A DNA stretch of 36,611 nucleotides from a virus (taxonomy: Duplodnaviria; Caudoviricetes). The notes below the pieces were generated by a model. That model was not told the DNA's origin, did not search any database, and was given only the letters and a program-made list of their open reading frames with translations. The stretch is taken from IMG/VR virus record IMGVR_UViG_3300017766_003347, positions 1 to 36,611 of that record; one strand, given 5' to 3'. Each line of letters opens with the position of its first letter. The stretch's first letter is position 1. Both the position numbers and the translations under genes were made by a program. Positions 1 through 36,496 of this stretch are shown here, piece after piece.

Positions 1-123
1 ACGATTGATGGCTGATCTTGACCGCCTCAAGCAAGTTGATCGAGAGGTTCGCCGCCGCGCCGCTCGCCTGTCGCAGACCTCGGCCGACATGCTGGCCCAG
101 GCGCAACAGATCGACATCCTCAA
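1..123. repeat. Terminal direct repeat, left copy (circular assembly overlap)
   Basis: Bases 1-123 (acgattgatggctgat...gacatcctcaa) are identical to 36489-36611. Confidence 0.97.
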
Positions 124-547
124 GGCGCAACTGGCCTCGGCGATCCAGCTTGCCAAGGATCAGCAGGCGGCCATGACCGCGCTGCAAGGCCGCCTCACGG
201 TCGAGGAACAGGCCACGGCGAACGACGCCACGCGGTTGATCGCGATCGAGGCGAACTATCTCAAGCGGTTCATGCTGCCGGATTGGAACGTCGTCATTGC
301 GCAAGGGCTGGCCCTGGCACTGGCCGCCGGCAACCGAACCTACACCCTCACGCTCGCGGCGTCCTTCGGCGTCAAGGCCGGGGCTCCCATCTTCGCCACA
401 CCAAAGGGCGCCGTGCCGGCCGGCTATCTCGTGGGCGCTGCCAGCGCGCCGGCCGACAACACGCTCAACATCCAGATCGGCAACCCGCTGATTGCGATCG
501 GGGGGAGCATGTCGCTCCTCCTCTCCGTCTTCACCCTGCGACCCTGA
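8..547 (+). CDS. Hypothetical protein: N-terminal coiled coil plus C-terminal beta-rich domain (possible fibre or spike)
   Basis: ATG at 8 overlaps the terS stop (TGATG) across the circular junction. Heptad-rich N-terminal half, beta-strand-like C-terminal half. Confidence 0.75.
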   Translation: MADLDRLKQVDREVRRRAARLSQTSADMLAQAQQIDILKAQLASAIQLAKDQQAAMTALQGRLTVEEQATANDATRLIAIEANYLKRFMLPDWNVVIAQGLALALAAGNRTYTLTLAASFGVKAGAPIFATPKGAVPAGYLVGAASAPADNTLNIQIGNPLIAIGGSMSLLLSVFTLRP

Positions 548-558
548 AAGGACGCCTC

Positions 559-2124
559 ATGCCTCGCAAGAATGGCAATCTCGATCCCCTATCGTCTGGA
601 TCTCGTGGCATCGGCCGCGCCATCTACCGAAACAAGCTCGACACGCTCAACACGATCCTGACGCCGGGATACTTCAACGACGACTGGACGTTGTTGCGCG
701 ACATCGACCTCATGGACATCGTAGCGAGCGACGGAACCATGACAGCCCGCATCGCCGCCGGCACGCGGTTTGTTCTGGTCTCGCCGTTCGGAACAGGATC
801 GGCAACACGTTCAAGCAATGTCGTTGCCGGGATTGGTGACAGCACAGTTGACCAGATGACGGCCGACACGCCGAAGCGCAACTTTTCCGCTTACAATCAT
901 GTGCCTGTCGGCAATGCCCTCGCGGAAAATCGGATTGCCCGGCTCCTCAATTTCGGGAAGTCTGGCGACCGAACAGATCAAACGCTTGCACGTCTTCCGG
1001 CTGCGCTCGCTTCTGGCGCTGGCGTCCTTTACATCAGCGAAGGGATAAACAGCTTCGCACAAGCGCCATATGTCCACGCGGTCACGGGACTGACTATCTC
1101 GGCTGCGGAGGTTGGAGCCTCTGCCTTTGCCGACACCCTGCAAAAGATTGATGCGGGGCTTGCCTTGGGAATGTCCGTGATTGTGGCTCTCTGCCACGGC
1201 GCGGAAAACTACACGGCCGCGCAGATTAAGCAGATGGTGATATATAACGCGGCGATCCGTCGCGCTGCGGAGGTTCGGCCGAACGTCTGGATCCTAGATA
1301 GCCCGGCCATCCTGCATGATCCCACGACAACGCCGAATGCAATCGTCTTCCGCACGAATTACATGCGGGCCGGCGAAGCGACGCGAGTTCATGAAGGCAC
1401 GTTGGGCGCCTATTTCGTCGGCAAGGCGTTCGCCCTGATCCTGCGCGAAGTCATGCGGCTCCTGCCGCGCAACAACGTTGACGGAACCAATCAGCGTGCG
1501 AACGGCCTTCAGCTCCTCAACAATCCGTTCTTCAATGCCACGACGGGCAACGCGGGCGTTCTCGGCGCCGGGGCGACGCTGGCCGGCGGCACCGCGGCCG
1601 CGCCGCGCGAATGGAACTTCAACCGGCAGAGTGGAGACACGACTTGCAATTTCACGGTCGGGGTCGAGCCGAACGCGCAAGGCAACGGCAATGATCTGGT
1701 GATTGCTGCAACGGCGACGGTGCCGGGGACTGGCGTTCGCGTTTCGCAGGATCTCGCCGGCACGCCTCCGAACGGTGACTTCTGGATGCCGGGTGCGGTG
1801 CTGCAAGGCTTCTCGAAAATCGCCGTCATATCGGGAGCGACCGGACTGGCCTCAGTCAATACTCAAATCGAAATGAACGGCACTCTCGACGGTGTAAGCA
1901 CAACGCAAACGACGCATGCGCTCCTCGGAGATGTTCCGAGCGGCCTTTTCCCATCGACGGAAGGTTTCAATTTCGACCTGATGACAGAACAGATGCTTGT
2001 TCCGGCTTACAGCGCGCGTGCATATCTGAGCTTCAAGGCGCTCAACCTCGTGTTCGGAACTGCTGGCAGTGCGACGGTTCGCGTCAATATGCCTCAAATG
2101 TCAGTGCTATCGACGCTCGTCTAA
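559..2124 (+). CDS. SGNH/GDSL hydrolase with N-terminal decoration-protein-like domain and C-terminal putative carbohydrate-binding beta-sandwich
   Basis: AAGGA RBS before ATG 559. SGNH blocks GIGDST, NFGKSGDRT, SEGINS, TRVHEG. N-terminus aligns with ORF 10024-10272. Confidence 0.8.
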   Translation: MPRKNGNLDPLSSGSRGIGRAIYRNKLDTLNTILTPGYFNDDWTLLRDIDLMDIVASDGTMTARIAAGTRFVLVSPFGTGSATRSSNVVAGIGDSTVDQMTADTPKRNFSAYNHVPVGNALAENRIARLLNFGKSGDRTDQTLARLPAALASGAGVLYISEGINSFAQAPYVHAVTGLTISAAEVGASAFADTLQKIDAGLALGMSVIVALCHGAENYTAAQIKQMVIYNAAIRRAAEVRPNVWILDSPAILHDPTTTPNAIVFRTNYMRAGEATRVHEGTLGAYFVGKAFALILREVMRLLPRNNVDGTNQRANGLQLLNNPFFNATTGNAGVLGAGATLAGGTAAAPREWNFNRQSGDTTCNFTVGVEPNAQGNGNDLVIAATATVPGTGVRVSQDLAGTPPNGDFWMPGAVLQGFSKIAVISGATGLASVNTQIEMNGTLDGVSTTQTTHALLGDVPSGLFPSTEGFNFDLMTEQMLVPAYSARAYLSFKALNLVFGTAGSATVRVNMPQMSVLSTLV

Positions 2125-2137
2125 CCGACGCCTATAG

Positions 2138-2166
2138 TCCCGCTGTCCACCAACAGCGGGATTTTT
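2138..2166 (+). terminator. Intrinsic terminator-like hairpin immediately before terL
   Basis: TCCCGCTGT-ccacca-ACAGCGGGA followed by TTTTT. Confidence 0.65.
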
Positions 2167-2167
2167 C

Positions 2168-3817
2168 ATGTCTGAAACCGATAGCCCACGCGAGGGCCAT
2201 GAACGGGCCGTCCGCATCCGCCTGCGCGATGACTTCGAATATTACGCGCCTCGATGCCTCAAGATCCTGACCAAGCCTGACGCGCACGGGAAGTCCGATA
2301 TCGTGCCGTTCGTTTTCAACGCGGCGCAACGGTACATCCACAAGCGGATTGAGGAACAGCGCGCGCGCCTGGGGCTTGTGCGGGCGATGATCCTGAAGGG
2401 CCGCCAGCAAGGCGCGTCCACCTATACCGAAGGCCGCTTCTACTGGAAGACGACGAACAACAAGGCCGAGAAGACATTCATCCTGACGCACAAGGATGAG
2501 GCGACCGCGAACCTGTTCACGATGGCGAAGCGGTATCACGACAACGTGCCGGTTTTCGTCCAGCCGAATGTCTCGAAACAGAACGCGAAAGAGCTGGTAT
2601 TCGACAGGCTCGACAGCCGGTATCAGGTGGCGACGGCCGGGAGCAAGGGCGCCGGGCGATCGGCGACGCTCACGAACGTGCACGGCTCTGAAGTGGGCTA
2701 TTGGGAGAACGCGCAATCCCACCTCTCGGGGATGCTTCAGGCGGTGCCGTTCGCTCGCGGGACGGAGGTCATCCTTGAAAGCACGGCGAACGGCGTTGGC
2801 AATGTGTTCCATGAGCAATGGAAGCTGGCCGAAGCCGGGCAATCAGACTTCATCGCGATCTTTGTCCCGTGGTTCTGGCAGACGGAATACCGGCGGCCGG
2901 TGCCGGATGATTTCTATCCGGATGGCAATGCGGAGAACGTGCCGGAAGGCGAGCTGACGGAGCAAGACTACCAGCAGCAATTCAAGCTGGATGACGAGCA
3001 AATCTACTGGCGCCGGATGAAGATCATCGAAATGGGCGGCGGCGAAGCGGGCTTCTATGAGTTCAAAAAGGAATATCCCGCGACGGCCGATGAAGCGTTC
3101 CAGGCATCGGCAATCGGCTCGCTCCTGTCCCGCAAGTTCGTCCTGAAGGCGCGCAAGTCCACCGTGGCGACAGAGGGGCCGCTGATCATCGGCTGCGATC
3201 CTGCCGGCGACGGGGAGGACAGCGACCGCACCGTGATCGTTCGGCGCCGCACGCGCCGGATCTTCGGGATCGAGACTTACAACACGCTGAATACGATGCA
3301 GATCGCGGCCCGGCTGCACGCGATCGTCATGCAGGAGAAGCCGTCAAAGGTGTTCGTGGATGTCGGCGGCCTGGGCGTCGGCGTGGTGGATCGCCTGCTA
3401 GAGCTGCAAGGGACGGCCGGCATCGTGATCCCGATCAACTTCGGGGAAAGCGCGAACGAACCGGATCGCTACACCAACCGAAAAGCCGAAATGGCGTGGC
3501 TGCTCAAGGAATGGCTGGAAGATCCTGGCGGCGCCAACATCCCCGATGATGACGCGGTGCAGGCTGACTTTCTCGCCACGCCTCCCGACGATCCCGACAG
3601 CAATCAGCGGCGGCGGCTGAAGGGCAAGAAATGGGTGAAGAAGCACGCCGGTTTCTCGCCTGATATCTTCGACGGCGCGTGCCTGACGTTCGCCCTCCCG
3701 ATTGCGGGCTTCACCTCGGGGCAAGGCAACTCGGCCGTCGATTTCGATCCCTTGGACTTCGCCGCGGGAGGTGATGCCGGCATCGGGAATTCGTACACCG
3801 ACTTCAACGTTTTCTGA
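2168..3817 (+). CDS. terL: Terminase large subunit
   Basis: Walker A-type LKGRQQGAST, HGSEV Walker B region, ESTANG coupling motif, RNase H-like IGCDPA and SPDIFD. Confidence 0.95.
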   Translation: MSETDSPREGHERAVRIRLRDDFEYYAPRCLKILTKPDAHGKSDIVPFVFNAAQRYIHKRIEEQRARLGLVRAMILKGRQQGASTYTEGRFYWKTTNNKAEKTFILTHKDEATANLFTMAKRYHDNVPVFVQPNVSKQNAKELVFDRLDSRYQVATAGSKGAGRSATLTNVHGSEVGYWENAQSHLSGMLQAVPFARGTEVILESTANGVGNVFHEQWKLAEAGQSDFIAIFVPWFWQTEYRRPVPDDFYPDGNAENVPEGELTEQDYQQQFKLDDEQIYWRRMKIIEMGGGEAGFYEFKKEYPATADEAFQASAIGSLLSRKFVLKARKSTVATEGPLIIGCDPAGDGEDSDRTVIVRRRTRRIFGIETYNTLNTMQIAARLHAIVMQEKPSKVFVDVGGLGVGVVDRLLELQGTAGIVIPINFGESANEPDRYTNRKAEMAWLLKEWLEDPGGANIPDDDAVQADFLATPPDDPDSNQRRRLKGKKWVKKHAGFSPDIFDGACLTFALPIAGFTSGQGNSAVDFDPLDFAAGGDAGIGNSYTDFNVF

Positions 3818-9130: not shown

Positions 9131-9976
9131 ATGTCCCGCAATCTTACCGCCAACGAACAGGCCTCTTTCGACAGCCGCGTGAAGGCTGCATACGAACTCG
9201 GCGGCCTCCTCCGCTCCACCGTCGAAATCGCCGACAATATTGTTGGCTCGACGCACCGTTTCCACCTGATGGGTAAGGGCCTCGCCACGAAGCGGATCGA
9301 CCAGACCGATGTCGTGCCGATGAACATCGTCCACGGCAACGCCACGGCGACGCTGGAAGACTGGAACGCGGCCGAATATACCGGCATCTTCAATCAGCAG
9401 AAGGTGCCGTACAAGGAACAGGACAAGCTTGCGACCGTCATTGCGAACGCCATCGGTCGCCGCGAAGATCAGCTCATTCTTGACGCGCTCGACGCCGCCG
9501 CAACCACGCTCACGGTCGCGACTTCGGTCGGCGGCGCCGCGACCGGCCTGAACACGGCGAAGATGCGCCGCGCTGCGATGCTCATGAACCGCGCCGGCGT
9601 GCCGCGCATGAAGGGCGAACGCACGTTCGTTATCTCGGCGGAAGGCCTGGAAAACCTCTTGGGCGATCCGGACGCGAACACGATCGACAAGAACAACATC
9701 AAGACGCTGTATGACGGTGAAATCTCGCACTGGCTCGGCTTCGAAATCGTTGTGATGGAAGATCGCGCGGAAGGCGGCCTTCCGAAGGTCGGCAACATCC
9801 GGACGAACTTCGCCTATCACCGCCCGGCGATCGGCCTCGCGGTCGGCATCAACATGCGGACGGAGGTCAATTACATCCCCGTCAAAACGTCGTACCTCGC
9901 CAACGGGATTTTCTCGGCCGGCGCTGTCGCGATCGACCCGACTGGCATCGTGGAAATCGAGACGACGGAGGCTTAA
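9131..9976 (+). CDS. Major capsid protein (HK97 fold)
   Basis: 281 aa after scaffold. AIGRREDQLILDAL, WLGFEIV and EVNYIPVKTSYL...GAVAIDPTGIVEI match podovirus capsid families. Confidence 0.92.
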   Translation: MSRNLTANEQASFDSRVKAAYELGGLLRSTVEIADNIVGSTHRFHLMGKGLATKRIDQTDVVPMNIVHGNATATLEDWNAAEYTGIFNQQKVPYKEQDKLATVIANAIGRREDQLILDALDAAATTLTVATSVGGAATGLNTAKMRRAAMLMNRAGVPRMKGERTFVISAEGLENLLGDPDANTIDKNNIKTLYDGEISHWLGFEIVVMEDRAEGGLPKVGNIRTNFAYHRPAIGLAVGINMRTEVNYIPVKTSYLANGIFSAGAVAIDPTGIVEIETTEA

Positions 9977-10023
9977 CGGCCTCCTGTCTCGCTCCTCCCG
10001 CACTCGTTTGAAGGACTGCAAAC

Positions 10024-10272
10024 ATGGCAATGGACAAGAAGTTTTTCGATCCCACGGGTTCCGGTTCCAAGGGCACCGGCATTCGCGCGATCTACAATCA
10101 CCCAACCGACACGAAGGCCACGATCAAGACCGCCGGCTATTTCAATTCGGTCGCGAACGAAATGGTGCGGATCAAGACGATCCTGATCATTTCGAGTGAC
10201 GCGACATTCGAAGCGAAAGTTTCGGTTGCCTCGGGCGTCGTCACGATCGCGGCACTCGACACTTTCGCGTAA
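10024..10272 (+). CDS. Putative capsid decoration/cement protein
   Basis: 82 aa directly after the capsid gene and before a terminator. DT.ATI.TAGYFN motif; AAGGA RBS. Confidence 0.75.
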   Translation: MAMDKKFFDPTGSGSKGTGIRAIYNHPTDTKATIKTAGYFNSVANEMVRIKTILIISSDATFEAKVSVASGVVTIAALDTFA

Positions 10273-10299
10273 TCTGCCCTTGCTGTTGGGCTAGACTGG

Positions 10300-10332
10300 C
10301 GGGCGGCGATGGGAAACCACGCCGCCCGTTTT
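10300..10332 (+). terminator. Intrinsic terminator after capsid and decoration genes
   Basis: CGGGCGGCG(a)TGG-gaaa-CCACGCCGCCCG followed by TTTT. Confidence 0.7.
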
Positions 10333-10350
10333 GCTTTGAGAGGATGGACA

Positions 10351-10989
10351 ATGGCCGACACCGATATTGCAATCTGCTCGCGCGCGCTGATCAAGCTCGG
10401 CGAATTCCCCATCGACACCCTGACCGATCCGCAGACGACGCCGGGCCAGATCTGCGCGATCCAGTATCCGCCGTTGCGTGACGCGCTCATGTCCAAGTAC
10501 GAATGGCGCTTCCTCATGCGGAAGGTCGAGCTTTCCCGCGACAGCGAGCGGCCAATCGGCGAGTGGTCCTATTCGTTCGTCCTGCCGTCCGACATCCTCG
10601 CCGGGCCTCATGCCGTGTTTACCTCGGCCCAGGCGATGGTCCCGACATCGCAATTCGAGATCTTCGGGAGGCGCGTCTATTCGAACGACGAACGCCTGTG
10701 GATCGACTACGCCGCGCGCCTGCCGGAAGATCAGTGGCCGTCATGGTTTTCGGAGCTGGTCGTTGCCGCGCTCTGCGCCGATATCGGTTTCACGATCACG
10801 GAACAGCAGAGCGTCGCGGATCGCTGGTGGAGCGTCGCCTACGGCACGCCCTCGGAAGGCGGATCGGGCGGCATTATGGGGCAAGCGATGTCGATCGACA
10901 GCCAGTCGAGCGGGAATATCGGCTTCCGCGATGACACGTTTATCAATGCGCGCTTCGGCGGTTATGTGCCTTGGGGAGGTGGCTTCTGA
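10351..10989 (+). CDS. Tail adaptor (tail tubular protein A, T7 gp11-like)
   Basis: GAGGA RBS. ICSRALIKLGE, W.F..RKVEL, WSYSFVLPSD. Confidence 0.88.
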   Translation: MADTDIAICSRALIKLGEFPIDTLTDPQTTPGQICAIQYPPLRDALMSKYEWRFLMRKVELSRDSERPIGEWSYSFVLPSDILAGPHAVFTSAQAMVPTSQFEIFGRRVYSNDERLWIDYAARLPEDQWPSWFSELVVAALCADIGFTITEQQSVADRWWSVAYGTPSEGGSGGIMGQAMSIDSQSSGNIGFRDDTFINARFGGYVPWGGGF

Positions 10990-13145
10990 TGGGAATGCGT
11001 CAGCTCAAGACGAATTTCGTCAACGGCGAACTCGATCCGCTGTTGCTCGGCCGATCCGACACGAAGGCGTATTTCAACGCAGCGGAATATATGCGCAACG
11101 TGATCGTTCTTCCCCAGGGCGGCGGGCGAACGCGGGCGGGCTCTCGCTATCTCTGGACGGTGCCTAACATTCCCGACATTGACGGCGGCGGGATCTCGGA
11201 TGTGCGACTGGCGGAATTCCAGTTCTCGACGGAGCAAGCCTATCTGTTCGTGTTCCACCACAAGACGCTGACGATCTTCCGAAACGGCGCCGTCGTGGCG
11301 ACGAAGATCACGCCCTGGTCATCCGCGCAGCTCAAAGCGAAGATCGACGCGGAAGGCAACATGCAGTCGAGCGGCATCACGTTCACGCAAAGCCGGGATA
11401 CGATGATCGTCTTTCATGAGGACTTCCAGCCGCGGACGATCAAGCGCGGTGCGACGCACGCGGATTGGACAATCGCGAATTACACATTCAAGAACGTTCC
11501 GCAATTCGACTTCGGGGATGTGACCTATACGAACGGCGTCGATGAGGTGCAGACGCTCGACTTCCCGAACCCAGGCGATCAGGGGAATTGGCAGGAAGGC
11601 GACACGTTCAAGCTGATCTTGGAAGACGAGGAAACGACGAACATCGAGTTCACGGACCCGGCGGCGCCGCTGGCCGCTCGCATCCAGGCGGCGTTGCGGA
11701 AGCTGCCGAACACGAGCGACGACGGCATAACCGTGACCTTCTCTGGCGGCACGTCGGCAGATGATGCGAAGTTCACAATCACCTTCGGCGGGGAAGACGG
11801 TCAACGGCCGTGGGGTTCGATGTCGTTCGACACGGTGTCCACGCAACAGGTTCCGACGATCAGCGTGGTTGTCACGACGGACGGCGTGAAGCCCGGCGAA
11901 AAGGTGTGGTCCACGTTGCGCGGCTGGCCTCGCTGCGGGCTTTACTTTCAGGGACGTCTCTGGATGGCCGGCACGCGCTCGCTCCCAAATACGGTGTGGG
12001 CTTCCCGCTCCGGAGATTACAACGACTTCAATGCCAAGAAGATTGACGACGATTACGGCATCAGCGCCACGACGGACACGGACGACGTTCCGGCCTTTAT
12101 CGCCATGTATGCCGGCCGTCACCTTCAGCTTTTTTCCACCTCGGCGGAATTCTACGTCCCGGCATCGGAAAGCGACGCGATCACGCCGGCGAATATCGTC
12201 CTTCGCCGCACCACGTCGCGCGGTTGCCGGCCGGGCCTGCGCGTGTTCGAAGTGGATGGCGCGACCATGTTCGTGCAACGGCGCGGCAAGGCGCTGCGGG
12301 AACTGATCTTCGCGGATGTCGAGCTCGCCTATCAGGCGAACAGCCTTTCGCTTCTCTCCTCGCACCTCATGCGCGATCCGGTCGGGCTGGCGCTGCGGCG
12401 ATCCACTTCGACGGAGGAGGCGGATTATCTGTTCATGTCAAACGGCGATGGCACGGCGACGGTTTTCTGTACGCTGCGAAGTCAGGAGGTCAACGCTATG
12501 GCTCTCTGGAACACGCAAGGCGCATGGAACGATGTGGCCGTGGTTCTTGATGGCGTCTATTTCGCTTGCCGGCGCGTGGTCGCCGGCGTGACGCGCAATT
12601 TCATCGAGATCATGGATGACACGATGACGGTCGATTGCGGTGTGAAGGCTGGCGCCGGCGCGACCGTCTCGCTCCCGCATCTGCCAGGGATGACGATTGA
12701 GCATCTGCTCGATGGCTTCACGCAACCGCCGAAGGCTGCGGACGGCGCCGGGCTGCTCACGCTGGCGCGGCCGGCGGAGAGCTCCATTCAAGCCGGGCTC
12801 AAGTATCCGGAGGTGTTGCCGGCGCTTTACCCCGGCCTGATCTGGCTGATCAAGACGCTGCCGATCGAGGGGGATTTGCAGGATGGGCCGATGATGGGGC
12901 GGAAGCGGCGCGTTGTCGGACTGGTCGCAAGGCTGTATGAGACGACGGCTTTGACCGTCAACGGCAACCGTCTATCTTTCCAGACCTTCGGGGCGCATCT
13001 TCTCGATCAGCCTGTTACCCCGTTCACGGGTCTCAAGAAGATCGGGGGTCTCCTCGGATACGATCGCGCGGGCGGGCTCGCGATGGGAAGCGATATTTCA
13101 AAGAAGGCGACGATCCTCGCGCTCGCCTGGGAAGTGAGCGTTTAA
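10989..13145 (+). CDS. Tail nozzle (tail tubular protein B, T7 gp12/P22 gp10-like)
   Basis: NFVNGELDP, N.IVLPQGG..TRAG, GWP....FQGRLW, VWASRSGDYNDF. TGATG coupling to upstream gene. Confidence 0.9.
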   Translation: MGMRQLKTNFVNGELDPLLLGRSDTKAYFNAAEYMRNVIVLPQGGGRTRAGSRYLWTVPNIPDIDGGGISDVRLAEFQFSTEQAYLFVFHHKTLTIFRNGAVVATKITPWSSAQLKAKIDAEGNMQSSGITFTQSRDTMIVFHEDFQPRTIKRGATHADWTIANYTFKNVPQFDFGDVTYTNGVDEVQTLDFPNPGDQGNWQEGDTFKLILEDEETTNIEFTDPAAPLAARIQAALRKLPNTSDDGITVTFSGGTSADDAKFTITFGGEDGQRPWGSMSFDTVSTQQVPTISVVVTTDGVKPGEKVWSTLRGWPRCGLYFQGRLWMAGTRSLPNTVWASRSGDYNDFNAKKIDDDYGISATTDTDDVPAFIAMYAGRHLQLFSTSAEFYVPASESDAITPANIVLRRTTSRGCRPGLRVFEVDGATMFVQRRGKALRELIFADVELAYQANSLSLLSSHLMRDPVGLALRRSTSTEEADYLFMSNGDGTATVFCTLRSQEVNAMALWNTQGAWNDVAVVLDGVYFACRRVVAGVTRNFIEIMDDTMTVDCGVKAGAGATVSLPHLPGMTIEHLLDGFTQPPKAADGAGLLTLARPAESSIQAGLKYPEVLPALYPGLIWLIKTLPIEGDLQDGPMMGRKRRVVGLVARLYETTALTVNGNRLSFQTFGAHLLDQPVTPFTGLKKIGGLLGYDRAGGLAMGSDISKKATILALAWEVSV

Positions 13146-13703: not shown

Positions 13704-15902
13704 ATGGCAGGAAATGCGACTATTCGAGGCGTGCCGCGCCAGCTTTCCAACGGCGGGGCGCCCGTCGTTCCGGCCTTGACCGCTTCACAGATCCCCACGA
13801 TCCAATATAGCAGCGGGTCCGCGCAGGCTTTGCAGTCCTTCGCTCGGGATATGTTCTCGATGTCGAAACAGTATGAGGATCAGCTTGACCAACAGGTGCA
13901 GGCAGAAGCCGCCGTGCAAGGCTCCGCGGCCGGGGCCGCCGGCGAATTCGAATATCAGGATTACGGCACGATCCGTGGCCGGGCTTTCAATCTGGCTGCT
14001 CGGGAAGCTTATGCGACGACGCTCGACACGCAAGCGATAGGCCGCCTGAACGACATTCGCGGCCAATATTGGAACGACCCTGACGGTCAGAAAGCCGCGA
14101 CGGAAAGCTACATCAACGGCGTGGCGTCGGAGTTGGCGAAGAAAGACCCGGCCCAGGCCGCCGCATTCCGCAACCGCAACCTGACGCGCGCCATGCCGGG
14201 GATCGAGGCGGCAAAGGATACCGTCTATGCTCTGACGCGCGATCAGGCAAACGCGGCGCTGATCCAGAACGAAGTAGCGTTGAACGCTGAAATCAAGGCG
14301 CAGTCGGCGGATCTCTTCAGCGAGAACCCGGAGCGCTCTCGCGCGGCCGCGCAGGCGATCGGCCTTGTCCAAGAGCAATATTTGCAGATCTATCAGGCGA
14401 AAGACCCTGGCACGGGCAAGCCGCTATATTCGGCCGTCGAGATCGCGAAGGCGAAGCGAGAGTTCATGGACAAGACCATGACGGAGGCCAGCCTGTCATG
14501 GTTCGAAGAGCAGCCCGACAAGGCGGCCGCATATCTGAAATTCTCCTCCGGGGATTTCAAGATCCAGTTGAACGACGGCGCCGGCCAGAAACAGTTCCGG
14601 GGAGACGCGCGGGCGTTCCTGAAGAACAAGACGCCGAACCACGGCCCGGATCACATCGACGGCATGAAGCCCGAAATGGCCGATCGGCTCGCGGCCATGA
14701 TTGACAGCGCGCCGCCGGCGATCAAGGAAGGGCTTCAGATTGGATCTGGCTTCCGGTCGGTAGAGCGCCAGCGCCAGCTTTTCAACGCCTCTGATCGTTC
14801 CGGTCGCATGGTTGCGCGGCCCGGTCATTCGCAGCACAACCACGGCGCGGCCGCGGATCTGAGCTTTAACGGCGCACGGCTCGACAAGGCCCCGCAAGAA
14901 GTTCGCGATTGGGTGCATTCCAATGCCGGCGCTTTTGGGCTCCGCTTCCCGATGGATTACGAGCCTTGGCATATCGAAACGCAAGAGGCCCGCGGCGGTG
15001 CGGCCCCGAAAGACACGGTGACGAGTGTCAAGGTGCGCGAGACGCTTGATCCGACGACACTTGATCGGATCGACACGGAAATGCGCCAGCGGATCGGCTT
15101 CAGCAATCAGCAGCGCGACCGGCGGGACGCTGAAGAGACGAAGCTGATCAAGGCTCAGCAGGATCTCAACAGCTTCGAATTCTTCAACCGGGCTGCGGCG
15201 CCGAAGGGCATCACGCGCGAGGAGATCACAGAAGGCGTCCGCACGGGACTGCTCAATGGCGGCGACGGCGAAAAGCTTCTGAAGTTCATCACGGCGGAAA
15301 AGCCGGAACGTTCCGACGAACCGACACGGCGCTTGATCCTTCAGCGGATCTACGACGGAGAGGACGTGAAAAACATGCTGTTCGACAATGCCGACAAGCT
15401 GCGCGGCGAGGATCTTACGTCTCTCCTGGCGCTCAACCAGACGCGGAACGTCGATGGCGACGCGAAGATGACGGAGGACCAGAAGTTCCAGCAAACGCAG
15501 CTCGACAAGCTTCTGACGCCGGATACCAACATGGCGGCCCTTGACCCCAATCGGCAAATGCGAAAGTTCACGGCGCTGAATGAATACCGCCGACGCATTC
15601 AAGATCCTGATGAGAAGATGACGCCAGAGGAGATCGCCCGCGACATTCAGGAACGGGCATTCCGCGATTTCTCAAACCTCGACATGAGCGAGTTAGGAGG
15701 CAAGGTTCGGCCGCGCTTCTCGGTTCCTTCGCCGGGCAATACGAAATATATCGACAAGCGGCAGTCCGCGATTGCGCTGCAAAAAGCCTATGACGCAAAG
15801 CAGATCACAGAGGCGGAATATCGCCGGCAGCAACGCGATCTGGTCGAATGGCTGAAGCTTCAGGATCGCGTGCAGGCGAACGCAACGGAGAAGGTGAAAT
15901 AG
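13704..15902 (+). CDS. Internal virion (ejection) protein with M15-family Zn peptidoglycan peptidase domain
   Basis: SGFRS.ERQ, ARPGHSQHNHGAAAD (SxHxxGxAxD) and EPWH motifs inside a helical protein. Confidence 0.85.
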   Translation: MAGNATIRGVPRQLSNGGAPVVPALTASQIPTIQYSSGSAQALQSFARDMFSMSKQYEDQLDQQVQAEAAVQGSAAGAAGEFEYQDYGTIRGRAFNLAAREAYATTLDTQAIGRLNDIRGQYWNDPDGQKAATESYINGVASELAKKDPAQAAAFRNRNLTRAMPGIEAAKDTVYALTRDQANAALIQNEVALNAEIKAQSADLFSENPERSRAAAQAIGLVQEQYLQIYQAKDPGTGKPLYSAVEIAKAKREFMDKTMTEASLSWFEEQPDKAAAYLKFSSGDFKIQLNDGAGQKQFRGDARAFLKNKTPNHGPDHIDGMKPEMADRLAAMIDSAPPAIKEGLQIGSGFRSVERQRQLFNASDRSGRMVARPGHSQHNHGAAADLSFNGARLDKAPQEVRDWVHSNAGAFGLRFPMDYEPWHIETQEARGGAAPKDTVTSVKVRETLDPTTLDRIDTEMRQRIGFSNQQRDRRDAEETKLIKAQQDLNSFEFFNRAAAPKGITREEITEGVRTGLLNGGDGEKLLKFITAEKPERSDEPTRRLILQRIYDGEDVKNMLFDNADKLRGEDLTSLLALNQTRNVDGDAKMTEDQKFQQTQLDKLLTPDTNMAALDPNRQMRKFTALNEYRRRIQDPDEKMTPEEIARDIQERAFRDFSNLDMSELGGKVRPRFSVPSPGNTKYIDKRQSAIALQKAYDAKQITEAEYRRQQRDLVEWLKLQDRVQANATEKVK

Positions 15903-20424: not shown

Positions 20425-22737
20425 ATGGCAGACATTCCCGTAAATGCAGGCGACGCGATCATAACGGTTGACGTGGTGACGAATGGGCAGAACGTTTTCG
20501 CGTTCGACTTCCTGACCTACAGCGTCGAGGACATCCGGGCGATCTACGTCACGCCCGGTGGAATGCGTGTGGAAATTCCACAGACGACGGGCTTCGGTGT
20601 TTCCGGACTTGAGAACGCGGCCGGCGGAACAATCCAGCTTCTAGGCGGCGCTCCGGTGACGGAATTTGGCGGGAAGGTCATCATTTATCGGGATATCGAG
20701 ATCAAGCGTCTTGCCGATTATCAGACGCTTGGCGACTTCAGGGCATCGACGGTCAATCGTGAGATGGACACGGTTTTTATGATCATGCAGGAGTTTCAGC
20801 GCGACCTTAATCGCGCCTTGCTGGTCGATCTCGGGCAGACGCCTCCGGACATTCCGTCGATCCTCGCTGCATCTGTAGCGGCTGTTGCGGCGGCGGCCGC
20901 CGCTCAAGCTGCCGCCGCAAGCGTGAACATTCGGCAGATCGCCACACGCGCAGGGGTAAAGGCTCTCGACACGTCCGCGACGGCGCTTGTCTTTCTCAGC
21001 GAACAAGGGCGGGAAGGTCTGTTTAAGTGGCAAGCCGGTGACTTCTCTTCGCGGATTTCTGCTGATACCGCGGAGGCGCTTTTCCTGAAGGCGAACTTGG
21101 TCGATGCGACGGCCGGCGCTTGGGTTCGACAGTTTGAAGGCGTGCAGGATATCCGGTGGTTTGGCGGCGTCTCGGGTGGATCTGTAGACAACGCTGCGGC
21201 CTTTCTCGCTGCGGCATCAGTCGGCGGTCAGGTCTACGTGCCTGAGGGTACATTCCTCGTGACCCTCACCACAGCGAACTTCGACGCCTTGGCGCGGGGT
21301 TTGTTTATCCGGTGTATCGGCCCAGGCGTGATCGATGCCGTTGTCCCCGTTGGCTTCATCACTGCGGCCGCGCAATTCGGCACGTACAATCAAGAAACCT
21401 GCCGCATCAACATCCGCGGAACTAACGTGAGCGGGAACCTTGCTGCGGCAAACATCTCGATCACGGGCTCTATCGGGAATTACGCCGCCGCGATTACCTT
21501 CCCGGCCCTTCCTGCGGGGATGGCTGTCGGTCAGTTGCTTTCCCTGGCGACGACTGATCGCACGGTGCCTGCCGTGCTGTTGTGCGGGGCGATGAAGATC
21601 ACGGCGATTGCTGGCAATGTCGTGACGGTTGCGCTGACCTATGCTAACGGAGCATGGCAGGCGCCGCCGGCCTCTCTCTCGTTTACTGGCTCTTATGTGA
21701 ACGGCCAGTCCGTCATCAATTACACGCAATTCCGAACGCTTTTCGCGGTGGTCGCGGATGGCGTGAAGTTGTCGCTCTCTCGGCTGGCGATGATCGGGCC
21801 TTACGTCGTGAGCCCGCTCGCCGGCGTCAACACGGTCGCATTTTCTCTAGGGATAAAAGACCAGACGGAAGAACTTTGCAGCTCGACGCAAAAGCTCTCC
21901 GATTGCCTGATCAGCGGGTTCAACTATGGAATTCTGCAACATGGCGGGAGCCTGAACATTCAGCGCCCGCATATCGGCGGCTGCTCCCAAGGCGCGCGGT
22001 TCGTTCGTGGCGCGCAAGCGTTCATGACAAACGTTCGCATTGGCGGGAATGCCGATAGCGGCGTTCACATTGACGCGCTGTCAAAGGTTGTTCATGAAGG
22101 CGAAGGCATGTCGTGCGGGAACGGCGGGCGTGGCGTCTGGTCATTTACTGGAGGCTGGTTTTCCTCGGGCGCGTTCGAAACCTCTTACAACGGATCGGCC
22201 GGCATTTACGGGAAGAATGGCGCTGTCATCTTCGAAGCTCCCAATTCTCGCGCACGCTTCAATAATGACATTGGGTTCGGGAATGAAAATAGCTTCCTGA
22301 ATGTGATCTCGACCTTCTCTCTCGACAACAGAAAGACCGGGTACGAAATCGGCGCGGGCGGCTTTACGGACCTAACAAATTCCGTGTCTCTCAGGAACGA
22401 ACAGGCGGTTTATGCACTGCTCAGTGCCGGCGCCGAGTGCGCGAATGTCGATGCCGGTTACAGTGTGGGCGGTCCTGGCATCAGTGGTAACGGCATGGCG
22501 GCGGGCGAGGGCTCGACCATTCGAGCGAAAAACAGCCGGTCCCATCACAACACAGGCGACGGCTATACGGCTGTCGGGAATTCTCATATTCGCAACGACG
22601 GGGCCACGGCCGATAGCAACACGGGATATGGTGAGCGCGCGCTGATCAACTCCTCCATAAGAAATCCCGGCGGCGTGTTCACTCCGGCCAATACCGCCGG
22701 CGCAACCAATAGCGACGCAACAAGCGTCGTCGTCTAA
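20425..22737 (+). CDS. Tail fibre/tailspike with T7 gp17-like N-terminal anchor and C-terminal beta-helix
   Basis: AAGGA RBS. F.FDF...DI and NREMD...MI.QE anchor, GAWVRQ neck, IRWFG...DN..AF..A...VYVPEGTF pectate-lyase-like start, N..xG repeats. Confidence 0.88.
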   Translation: MADIPVNAGDAIITVDVVTNGQNVFAFDFLTYSVEDIRAIYVTPGGMRVEIPQTTGFGVSGLENAAGGTIQLLGGAPVTEFGGKVIIYRDIEIKRLADYQTLGDFRASTVNREMDTVFMIMQEFQRDLNRALLVDLGQTPPDIPSILAASVAAVAAAAAAQAAAASVNIRQIATRAGVKALDTSATALVFLSEQGREGLFKWQAGDFSSRISADTAEALFLKANLVDATAGAWVRQFEGVQDIRWFGGVSGGSVDNAAAFLAAASVGGQVYVPEGTFLVTLTTANFDALARGLFIRCIGPGVIDAVVPVGFITAAAQFGTYNQETCRINIRGTNVSGNLAAANISITGSIGNYAAAITFPALPAGMAVGQLLSLATTDRTVPAVLLCGAMKITAIAGNVVTVALTYANGAWQAPPASLSFTGSYVNGQSVINYTQFRTLFAVVADGVKLSLSRLAMIGPYVVSPLAGVNTVAFSLGIKDQTEELCSSTQKLSDCLISGFNYGILQHGGSLNIQRPHIGGCSQGARFVRGAQAFMTNVRIGGNADSGVHIDALSKVVHEGEGMSCGNGGRGVWSFTGGWFSSGAFETSYNGSAGIYGKNGAVIFEAPNSRARFNNDIGFGNENSFLNVISTFSLDNRKTGYEIGAGGFTDLTNSVSLRNEQAVYALLSAGAECANVDAGYSVGGPGISGNGMAAGEGSTIRAKNSRSHHNTGDGYTAVGNSHIRNDGATADSNTGYGERALINSSIRNPGGVFTPANTAGATNSDATSVVV

Positions 22738-36080: not shown

Positions 36081-36224
36081 ATGCGCAAGGACATCATGGA
36101 GCGGATGGGGGAATGGGTAGATCGTATGTTGATCGAGGGCTATAGCCGCGATGAGATCGCCAGCGCCATCGAATGCCAGAAGATGGCAATGGACGAAGAG
36201 GACGAAGGCGAGGAGGAGGAATGA
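36081..36224 (+). CDS. Small acidic protein (47 aa), absent from ORF track
   Basis: AAGGAG RBS; MRKDIMERMGEWVDRMLIEGYSRDEIASAIECQKMAMDEEDEGEEEE; ATGA overlap with terS. Confidence 0.6.
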   Translation: MRKDIMERMGEWVDRMLIEGYSRDEIASAIECQKMAMDEEDEGEEEE

Positions 36225-36496
36225 GCAGCAAGAAGAAAGAGGCGGAAAGCGGCTTCCATGCGGTCTTGGCCGATGGGCTGGCCACGCCTGAAAGCGTGAT
36301 GATTGCGGTGATGCGGGGCGAGACGGCGATCCTGAACGGCACACGCGGTCGCCCTCGCAAGCTGACGCCTCGCATGATCGACGCGGCGGAAAAGCTCTTG
36401 CCGTACCGCTTGCCGAAGCTGAACGCGGTTGATGCGGTGTCGCGCAATGTCGAGATGACGCATGAGGACTGGATCAACGAGATCGGGAACGATTGA
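36221..36496 (+). CDS. terS: Putative terminase small subunit
   Basis: GGAGGAGG RBS. TP..VM..VM.....R..DAA..LLPY..PKL..V pattern; upstream of terL on the circle. Confidence 0.65.
   Translation: MSSKKKEAESGFHAVLADGLATPESVMIAVMRGETAILNGTRGRPRKLTPRMIDAAEKLLPYRLPKLNAVDAVSRNVEMTHEDWINEIGND

Follow-up and report, generated by a model that had tools for sequence, protein, structure and literature searches.

A decoration-family anchor fused to an SGNH-fold domain in a podovirus-type genome: a candidate head-displayed carbohydrate deacylase

Can a phage display an enzyme on its head by fusing it to a second copy of its own decoration protein? This question is raised by an open reading frame close to the left end of the viral genome IMGVR_UViG_3300017766_003347, the whole of which (36,611 nucleotides) was analysed and is called the window below. 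The original prediction had seen in this frame a paralog of the small protein encoded after the major capsid gene, followed by an esterase of the SGNH type and a beta-rich domain. The window is a circularly complete genome of an uncultured phage with a terminal overlap of 123 bases. It is of the podovirus type, encoding, according to Pfam and PHROG matches, terminase, portal, scaffold, major capsid and tail tubular proteins as well as internal virion proteins, a tail protein and a GH108 endolysin. No close cultured relative was found, because the best annotated capsid proteins, those of Dunaliella viridis virus SI2 and Methylophilales phage MEP301, are only 53% and 47% identical.

The features that matter for the argument are collected in Table 1. 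The fusion gene is preceded by a ribosome-binding-like AAGGA at 548-552, and the similarity of anchor-less Rhizobium proteins to its product begins near residue 75-82. The region 400-2400 was found whole and with 0 differences in one contig of a second assembly (run X1), which shows that the fusion junction is no oddity of a single assembly, although the source sample may be the same as that of the window, and the run is hence not independent. Among the sequencing runs listed with this sequence, none is of RNA, and the five in which its share is small were left aside with respect to habitat.

Table 1. Positions of the fusion gene, its parts and the genes discussed with it
Feature	Position	Strand	Basis
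Fusion ORF, 521 aa: decoration-type anchor, SGNH domain, beta-sandwich	559..2124	+	intact frame, BLASTP, Pfam, Foldseek
Anchor domain, residues ~1-75, LME-1 head-decoration base family	559..783	+	BLASTP, profiles
Short joint, residues ~76-88	784..822	+	homology start of anchor-less proteins
SGNH hydrolase domain, residues ~89-300	823..1458	+	Pfam, alignment, Foldseek
C-terminal beta-sandwich, residues ~315-521, CBM-like fold, putatively sugar-binding	1501..2121	+	model, Foldseek
Terminator-like hairpin, 11 pairs, between fusion gene and terL	2136..2163	+	consensus match only
179-aa gene, in the terS-terL slot with the fusion	8..547	+	no Pfam or PHROG match
Terminase large subunit (terL), right edge of the variable slot	2168..3817	+	PHROG
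Putative terminase small subunit (terS), left edge of the slot across the 123-base overlap	36173..36496	+	position and size
Major capsid protein	9131..9976	+	PF19821, phrog_3437
Standalone decoration protein, 82 aa, predicted homolog of the LME-1 trimeric base	10024..10272	+	model, structure search, profile
Tail fibre/tail protein, separate from the fusion, own tail-type N-terminus	20425-22737		PHROG

The proposed relationship between the first ~75 residues of the fusion protein and the 82-aa protein, the gene of which comes after the major capsid gene, is well supported. BLASTP aligns the two with 28 identities over 73 residues (38%, E 1e-12), and the comparison of the fused anchor with the standalone family by hhalign gave a profile-profile probability of 99.7% over 78 columns. 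As a control, all 535 stop-to-stop frames of the window were searched with a profile from which both window sequences had been left out, and only two of the frames scored at E<1, namely the 82-aa gene (2.5e-28) and the N-terminus of the fusion (1.1e-12); the next frame had an E of 2.3. The fused anchor retains the family-invariant residues Y23, Y38 and F39, the near-invariant D28 and the N-terminal arm motif of the family. It departs from the family consensus at A31>N, G70>R and T73>L, and thus its binding site may differ.

The family itself can be named with the help of a solved structure. The model of the 82-aa protein (pLDDT 89.9) matched chain H of 9EG4, the head-decoration base of phage LME-1, with a VIA-align Z of 10.2 (rmsd 2.0, 77 aligned residues), the next best of 48,161 chains having a Z of 4.0, and the same chain was ranked first by Foldseek (TM 0.71, E 3.1e-3). 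Single-sequence searches of the PDB gave no useful match. A profile of 65 rows that included both window domains had 9EG4_H as its sole PDB match (E 7e-9); with a profile of fused anchors only, the E value for this chain was 0.22. Moreover, a PDB search with the window's capsid protein yielded a single sequence match at E<=1, to the capsid protein of LME-1 (9EG4_A, E 9.5e-33). Thus, the 82-aa protein, which had been taken for a decoration protein from the position of its gene, is homologous to a solved head-decoration base, and the N-terminus of the fusion belongs to the same decoration family and would share the fold of the base. Over residues 1-81, where the underlying alignment had almost no rows, the full-length model of the fusion has a pLDDT below 50, and a complex prediction with two standalone chains and one fused anchor scored 0.00, but its controls did not fold, and it counts neither for nor against binding. 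The LME-1 decoration protein is described as a trimeric base that joins capsomers, with distal C-terminal regions that point outward and are unmodelled, and as different in its base from the decoration proteins described before (PMC12407071, in its available text); 9EG4 contains seven decoration chains per asymmetric unit. Searches of the fusion for Hoc or Soc domains in Pfam and PHROGs gave no match. A match to CsgH was rejected, as it was below the cut-off and did not appear among the fold-search matches.

The anchor family, for which there is no Pfam model, comprises 1,381 representatives at E<=0.001, and its members differ greatly in length. Among the best 150 of these, 69 have at most 100 residues and 81 have more: 61 fall between 101 and 250 aa, a class in which some entries are double anchors in tandem or calls extended at the N-terminus, and 20 are longer. 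Eight long fusions (P0047, P0123, P0094, P0084, P0112, P0101, P0092 and the L057 gene) were chosen by eye for their likeness to the fused anchor of the window, while P0139, P0170, P0159 and P0151, among others, are long members outside the tree. Only one of the 36 pairs among the resulting nine long fusions has similar cargoes (P0084/P0092), so that the nine carry eight distinct cargoes. The anchor of the window's fusion is 79% identical to that of P0047 over 84 aa, but the cargo of P0047, in which SGNH-like motifs were read by eye, is unrelated; similarly, the L057 and P0101 proteins are 82% identical over their first 112 residues and have no similarity beyond. The expectation that the same anchor would be found on different cargoes in related proteins was therefore borne out. 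Other sister cargoes match beta-helix, pre-neck appendage or tail-fibre proteins, i.e. exterior parts of virions; for two of the eight (P0123 and P0112), neither Pfam nor PHROG gave a match. In 50,697 annotated phages, tblastn found no match to the 82-aa protein or to P0047, and the fusion retrieved three weak actinophage records, by its SGNH part only, of which the one inspected was uninformative; when metagenomes were scanned with the fused anchor, the record of the window itself was the sole match.

In a tree of 62 rows and 82 columns, the fused anchor of the window and the eight long fusions lie together on one side of a branch with support 98/93 and form a long-branched group of their own, outside of which the standalone gene falls. 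It should be noted that this grouping was picked after viewing the sequences and that the tree has few columns. A clade that unites the two copies of the window with P0047 was not rejected by the AU test (p-AU 0.264). An old duplication is therefore favoured rather than proven, and a recent duplication within this genome is disfavoured by the tree, although not rejected by the AU test. The original prediction of an anchor-gene duplication holds with respect to paralogy; in the tree, the duplication looks old and shared by a phage group instead of having arisen in this genome. Two domains of the anchor family also occur in tandem in P0082, P0135, P0142, P0173, P0189 and P0199, proteins of ~180-190 aa that are possibly the fused form of a two-paralog decoration unit. 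Furthermore, a bare and an extended decoration paralog follow the capsid gene in tandem in L013 (3207-4079) and L014 (about 10001-10876), the latter a more distant phage than the eight close relatives discussed below; this is apparently a second case of a two-copy design, separate from that of the window.

The location of the fusion gene between terS and terL was compared with that in eight close relatives, defined by a capsid protein at least 76% identical and a visible terS-terL interval (L001, L002/L057, L003, L005, L006, L010, L011 and L012). Two of them (L057 and G002) have an anchor fusion in this slot, of 880 aa and 687 aa, together with a standalone gene behind that of the capsid protein. 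In the remaining six, the slot contains unrelated genes, only a homolog of the neighbouring 179-aa gene, or a short gap. The slot is thus variable and its fusion optional and dispensable. It is likely that the fused anchor stems from an old paralog lineage that has been kept as a display socket in this slot. The slot of L005 is filled solely by a homolog of the 179-aa gene that is 32% identical. The C-terminal part of the 179-aa protein is weakly similar to the extension of the decoration-family member P0078 (E 0.002 in a search of 151 proteins), and its gene possibly encodes another virion fibre. When the genome ends are joined, the start of this gene overlaps with the stop of terS. In the genome G001, the slot contains two large anchor-less proteins of 382 and 758 aa (L076 1837-5267) with no PHROG match. 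With respect to base composition, the GC3 of the cargo (0.67) is close to that of the tail protein (0.68) and lower than that of the core genes (0.76-0.84), which would be in line with a recent acquisition of the cargo.

The two domains that had been proposed to follow the anchor were both recovered. Residues 92-255 match PF13472 with an E of 3.9e-6 and 27.9 bits, below the gathering cut-off of 32.9, which a homolog 72% identical (P0036) clears with 38.8 bits. Beyond residue 81, the model of the fusion has a pLDDT mostly above 70, and its top Foldseek matches are mostly SGNH acylhydrolases and acetyl esterases (E about 1e-6). A match to PHROG 6102 likewise supports the SGNH assignment. The residues G93-D94-S95 (GDS), G133, S135, G136, N164 and H278 are invariant in all 14 aligned homologs, down to 27% identity, and the cargo thus possesses the SGNH fold and blocks I-III with Ser, Gly and Asn. 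The position of the canonical DxxH Asp, three residues before H278, is occupied by T275. The close subfamily has an acid five residues before the His, which is E273 in the fusion and Asp in P0042-P0044, and E273 is a candidate for the substitute acid; two distant cargo homologs show DxTH. SGNH enzymes with a Ser-His dyad exist. In the model, the C-terminal domain consists of beta structure throughout. Its Foldseek matches include CBM11 and CBM4-2, and on this structural likeness it would bind sugar; its Atlas feature matches are all below 0.9 and serve as leads at most. Carbohydrate esterases that share the SGNH fold with the cargo in Foldseek are CEX (PDB 6hh9/6hfz), which consists of an SGNH domain and a carbohydrate-binding sandwich, PbeAcXE and Axe2; however, the identity is only 11-20%, and no CAZy family can be assigned.

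The closest homologs of the cargo are 56-72% identical over ~85% of the query and have no anchor. No anchor match was present in the fetched DNA of any of 37 cargo loci, so that the cargo does not need the anchor. A link of the cargo to polysaccharides had been suspected, and it is strengthened by the location of these relatives: all five chromosomal Rhizobiaceae loci at >=56% identity (L020-L024) are surrounded by glycosyltransferase genes together with genes for Wzc-like proteins or flippases, as read from 74 selected ORFs. Two of the five loci (L020 and L024) contain two Acyl_transf_3 genes each, L020, L022 and L023 contain sugar epimerase genes, and an integrase is near L024. In contrast, none of the findings point in particular to the succinylated exopolysaccharide that had been named as a target. 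The likeliest substrate would be an O-acylated Rhizobiaceae polysaccharide, with succinoglycan not singled out, and Rhizobiaceae would be the host, as inferred from the cargo only. The 14-row clade of the cargo (support 100) contains two other phage copies besides the chromosomal ones, one of which (L036) lies between a T7-type tail fibre and terminase. The phage and chromosomal copies are not separated in the cargo tree (three changes versus a shuffled mean of about four), and the tree thus favours neither direction of transfer. The anchor-less homologs in L020-L024, around 9900-11340, have no evident signal peptide by eye. Their N-terminal THxxGHD motif recurs behind the anchor in the phage fusion L057, a hint that the chromosomal copies might derive from phage appendage genes. 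Distant cargo homologs on Sphingomonas-type and viral contigs (L033, L043, L046-L048, L050-L052) have N-termini that resemble signal peptides by eye, and the SGNH cargo family may therefore also be exported.

The reading that we prefer, with a probability of roughly 0.6, is that the fusion protein would be a carbohydrate deacylase displayed on the head by a dedicated display paralog. The cargo-free 82-aa protein and the fusion would both be made late, and the fused anchor would trimerise and, as in LME-1, bind where three capsomers meet. A T=7 head, a geometry that is assumed for this phage, would offer 140 trimer sites, of which the bare base would take the majority. A minority would go to the bulky fusion, in which a joint of ~13 residues bears ~440 residues of cargo, in the form of homo- or mixed trimers, with the C-terminus of the fusion facing outward as in LME-1. 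The enzyme would bind the surface or extracellular polysaccharide of Rhizobiaceae and strip its O-acyl groups, which might hold the virion on the matrix or loosen the matrix, while final adsorption would be left to the separate tail fibre. A more far-reaching version is offered tentatively and is doubtful as a whole: this podovirus group might reserve the hypervariable terS-terL slot for a dedicated second decoration gene that works as a plug-in socket. The socket would be loaded with polysaccharide enzymes and adhesins, some of them exchanged directly with the polysaccharide-synthesis clusters of the host, and would form mixed trimers with the bare protein. If so, the head, and not the tail alone, would carry a fast-evolving module for host range or biofilm entry.

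The sites used by the fused anchor might be different ones. The fused anchors form a group of their own with changes at some consensus positions, their cargoes resemble tailspike or fibre proteins, and gp84 of phage phi24B is described in the available text as being proteolytically cut from its own anchor. The diverged anchor might thus be placed at the portal vertex or tail region, or serve merely for trimerisation or as a cleavable leader of a released enzyme. This seems unlikely: the one family member with a solved structure serves as a capsid base, the fused anchor has lost neither the N-terminal arm motif nor any of the three invariant residues, and a distinct tail protein, with a tail-type N-terminus of its own, is encoded by the phage.

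Alternatively, the fusion might be on the head and be non-catalytic or weakly catalytic, the SGNH fold and the sandwich acting as a glycan-binding adhesin. This would fit the replacement of the usual Asp by T275 in the close subfamily, the PF13472 score below the cut-off and the fibre-like rather than enzyme-like look of several sister cargoes, but it is quite improbable in view of the invariance of S95, G136, N164 and H278, the acid five residues before the His, the DxTH of the two distant homologs and the existence of dyad enzymes. A third possibility is a non-virion enzyme that deacylates the polysaccharide of the host, or a precursor of it, within the cell during infection, and whose anchor is a vestige. 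This would be in keeping with nearest homologs (about 70%) that are anchor-less, lack an evident signal peptide and lie in chromosomal polysaccharide clusters, and with the match of the cargo to PHROG 6102, which is filed as moron/host takeover. However, the fusion gene lies in the packaging and structural block, and the virions of phage phiPsa374 were found to contain an SGNH protein whose gene is upstream of that for the portal, according to the available text of PMC9796965. Moreover, anchors conserved at 79-82% while the cargoes were replaced are the opposite of vestigial, and an intracellular role must be judged very improbable.

Head display of an enzyme is already reported with other anchors, as far as the available texts describe it. 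LME-1 (orf16, PDB 9EG4 chain H etc.) has the same base family and a homologous capsid protein, but only one decoration protein is described, of 269 aa with 89 modelled, which combines the N-terminal base with a C-terminal extension that is shorter and of unknown function (PMC12407071); the window has a bare base of 82 aa and also a distantly related paralog of it that bears ~440 aa of enzyme-fold cargo. Closest in design is gp84 of the Stx phage phi24B, in which a small N-terminal capsid anchor is likewise followed by an esterase and a jelly-roll (bioRxiv 10.64898/2026.04.10.717836). Gp84 has been shown in virions as a capsid decoration, and its anchor family occurs alone and with other cargoes. 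However, the gp84 anchor is a DUF1737 domain (PF08410) that is hexameric at hexon centres and that the available text does not present as paralogous to the cementing protein of that phage, and the esterase is of the NanS/SASA type. No Pfam match to SASA or DUF1737 was found in the fusion at E<=0.01, and the fusion would work like gp84 without being a member of the gp84/NanS-p family. Enterobacter phage PG7, a myovirus, has a second Hoc-like protein of 511 aa in which an N-terminal capsid-binding domain is fused to GDSL, as described from sequence in one sentence (PMC10385173); its anchor is of the T4 Hoc type, and the fusion differs from Hoc- or Soc-anchored GDSL fusions in that its anchor is assigned to the LME-1 family rather than to the T4-type capsid-binding domains. 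Other virion proteins with SGNH or esterase domains, i.e. G7C gp63.1 (PDB 4qnl, also a Foldseek match of the fusion with E 2e-5), the tailspikes of Moo19/B2 (PMC11654681) and phiPsa374 gp053 (PMC9796965), are described in the available texts as tail parts without a decoration-family anchor. In the literature searched, which comprised few subscription papers, no enzyme fused to an LME-1-type base was found. Compared with that literature, the new elements are the family to which the anchor belongs, a lineage of seemingly dedicated paralogs that bears many cargoes at one constant slot, and the connection of the cargo with polysaccharide clusters of the host.

Several points follow for the biology of phage heads. 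A family of 1,381 representatives gains a name, the LME-1 decoration base, and this base is seen to be used as a modular N-terminal socket for cargoes of up to about 800 residues. Together with phi24B gp84 and the Hoc-GDSL protein of PG7, the fusion suggests that unrelated phages have repeatedly placed glycan esterases on the head. The link of the cargo to Rhizobiaceae polysaccharide clusters provides a concrete substrate to test, and an anchor of 80 residues that carries large folded enzymes would make a compact display tag.

Two minor observations concern other parts of the window. The terminator-like hairpin behind the fusion gene has a T run and ends four bases ahead of the terL start, and it could damp the expression of terL relative to the upstream fusion gene; terminator-like sites number 15 in the window versus 10.6 +/- 3.3 in shuffled sequences. 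Lastly, the putative internal virion protein encoded at 13704-15902 contains a VanY-type D-Ala-D-Ala peptidase domain at residues 321-424 (PF02557, E 4e-13 in Pfam).
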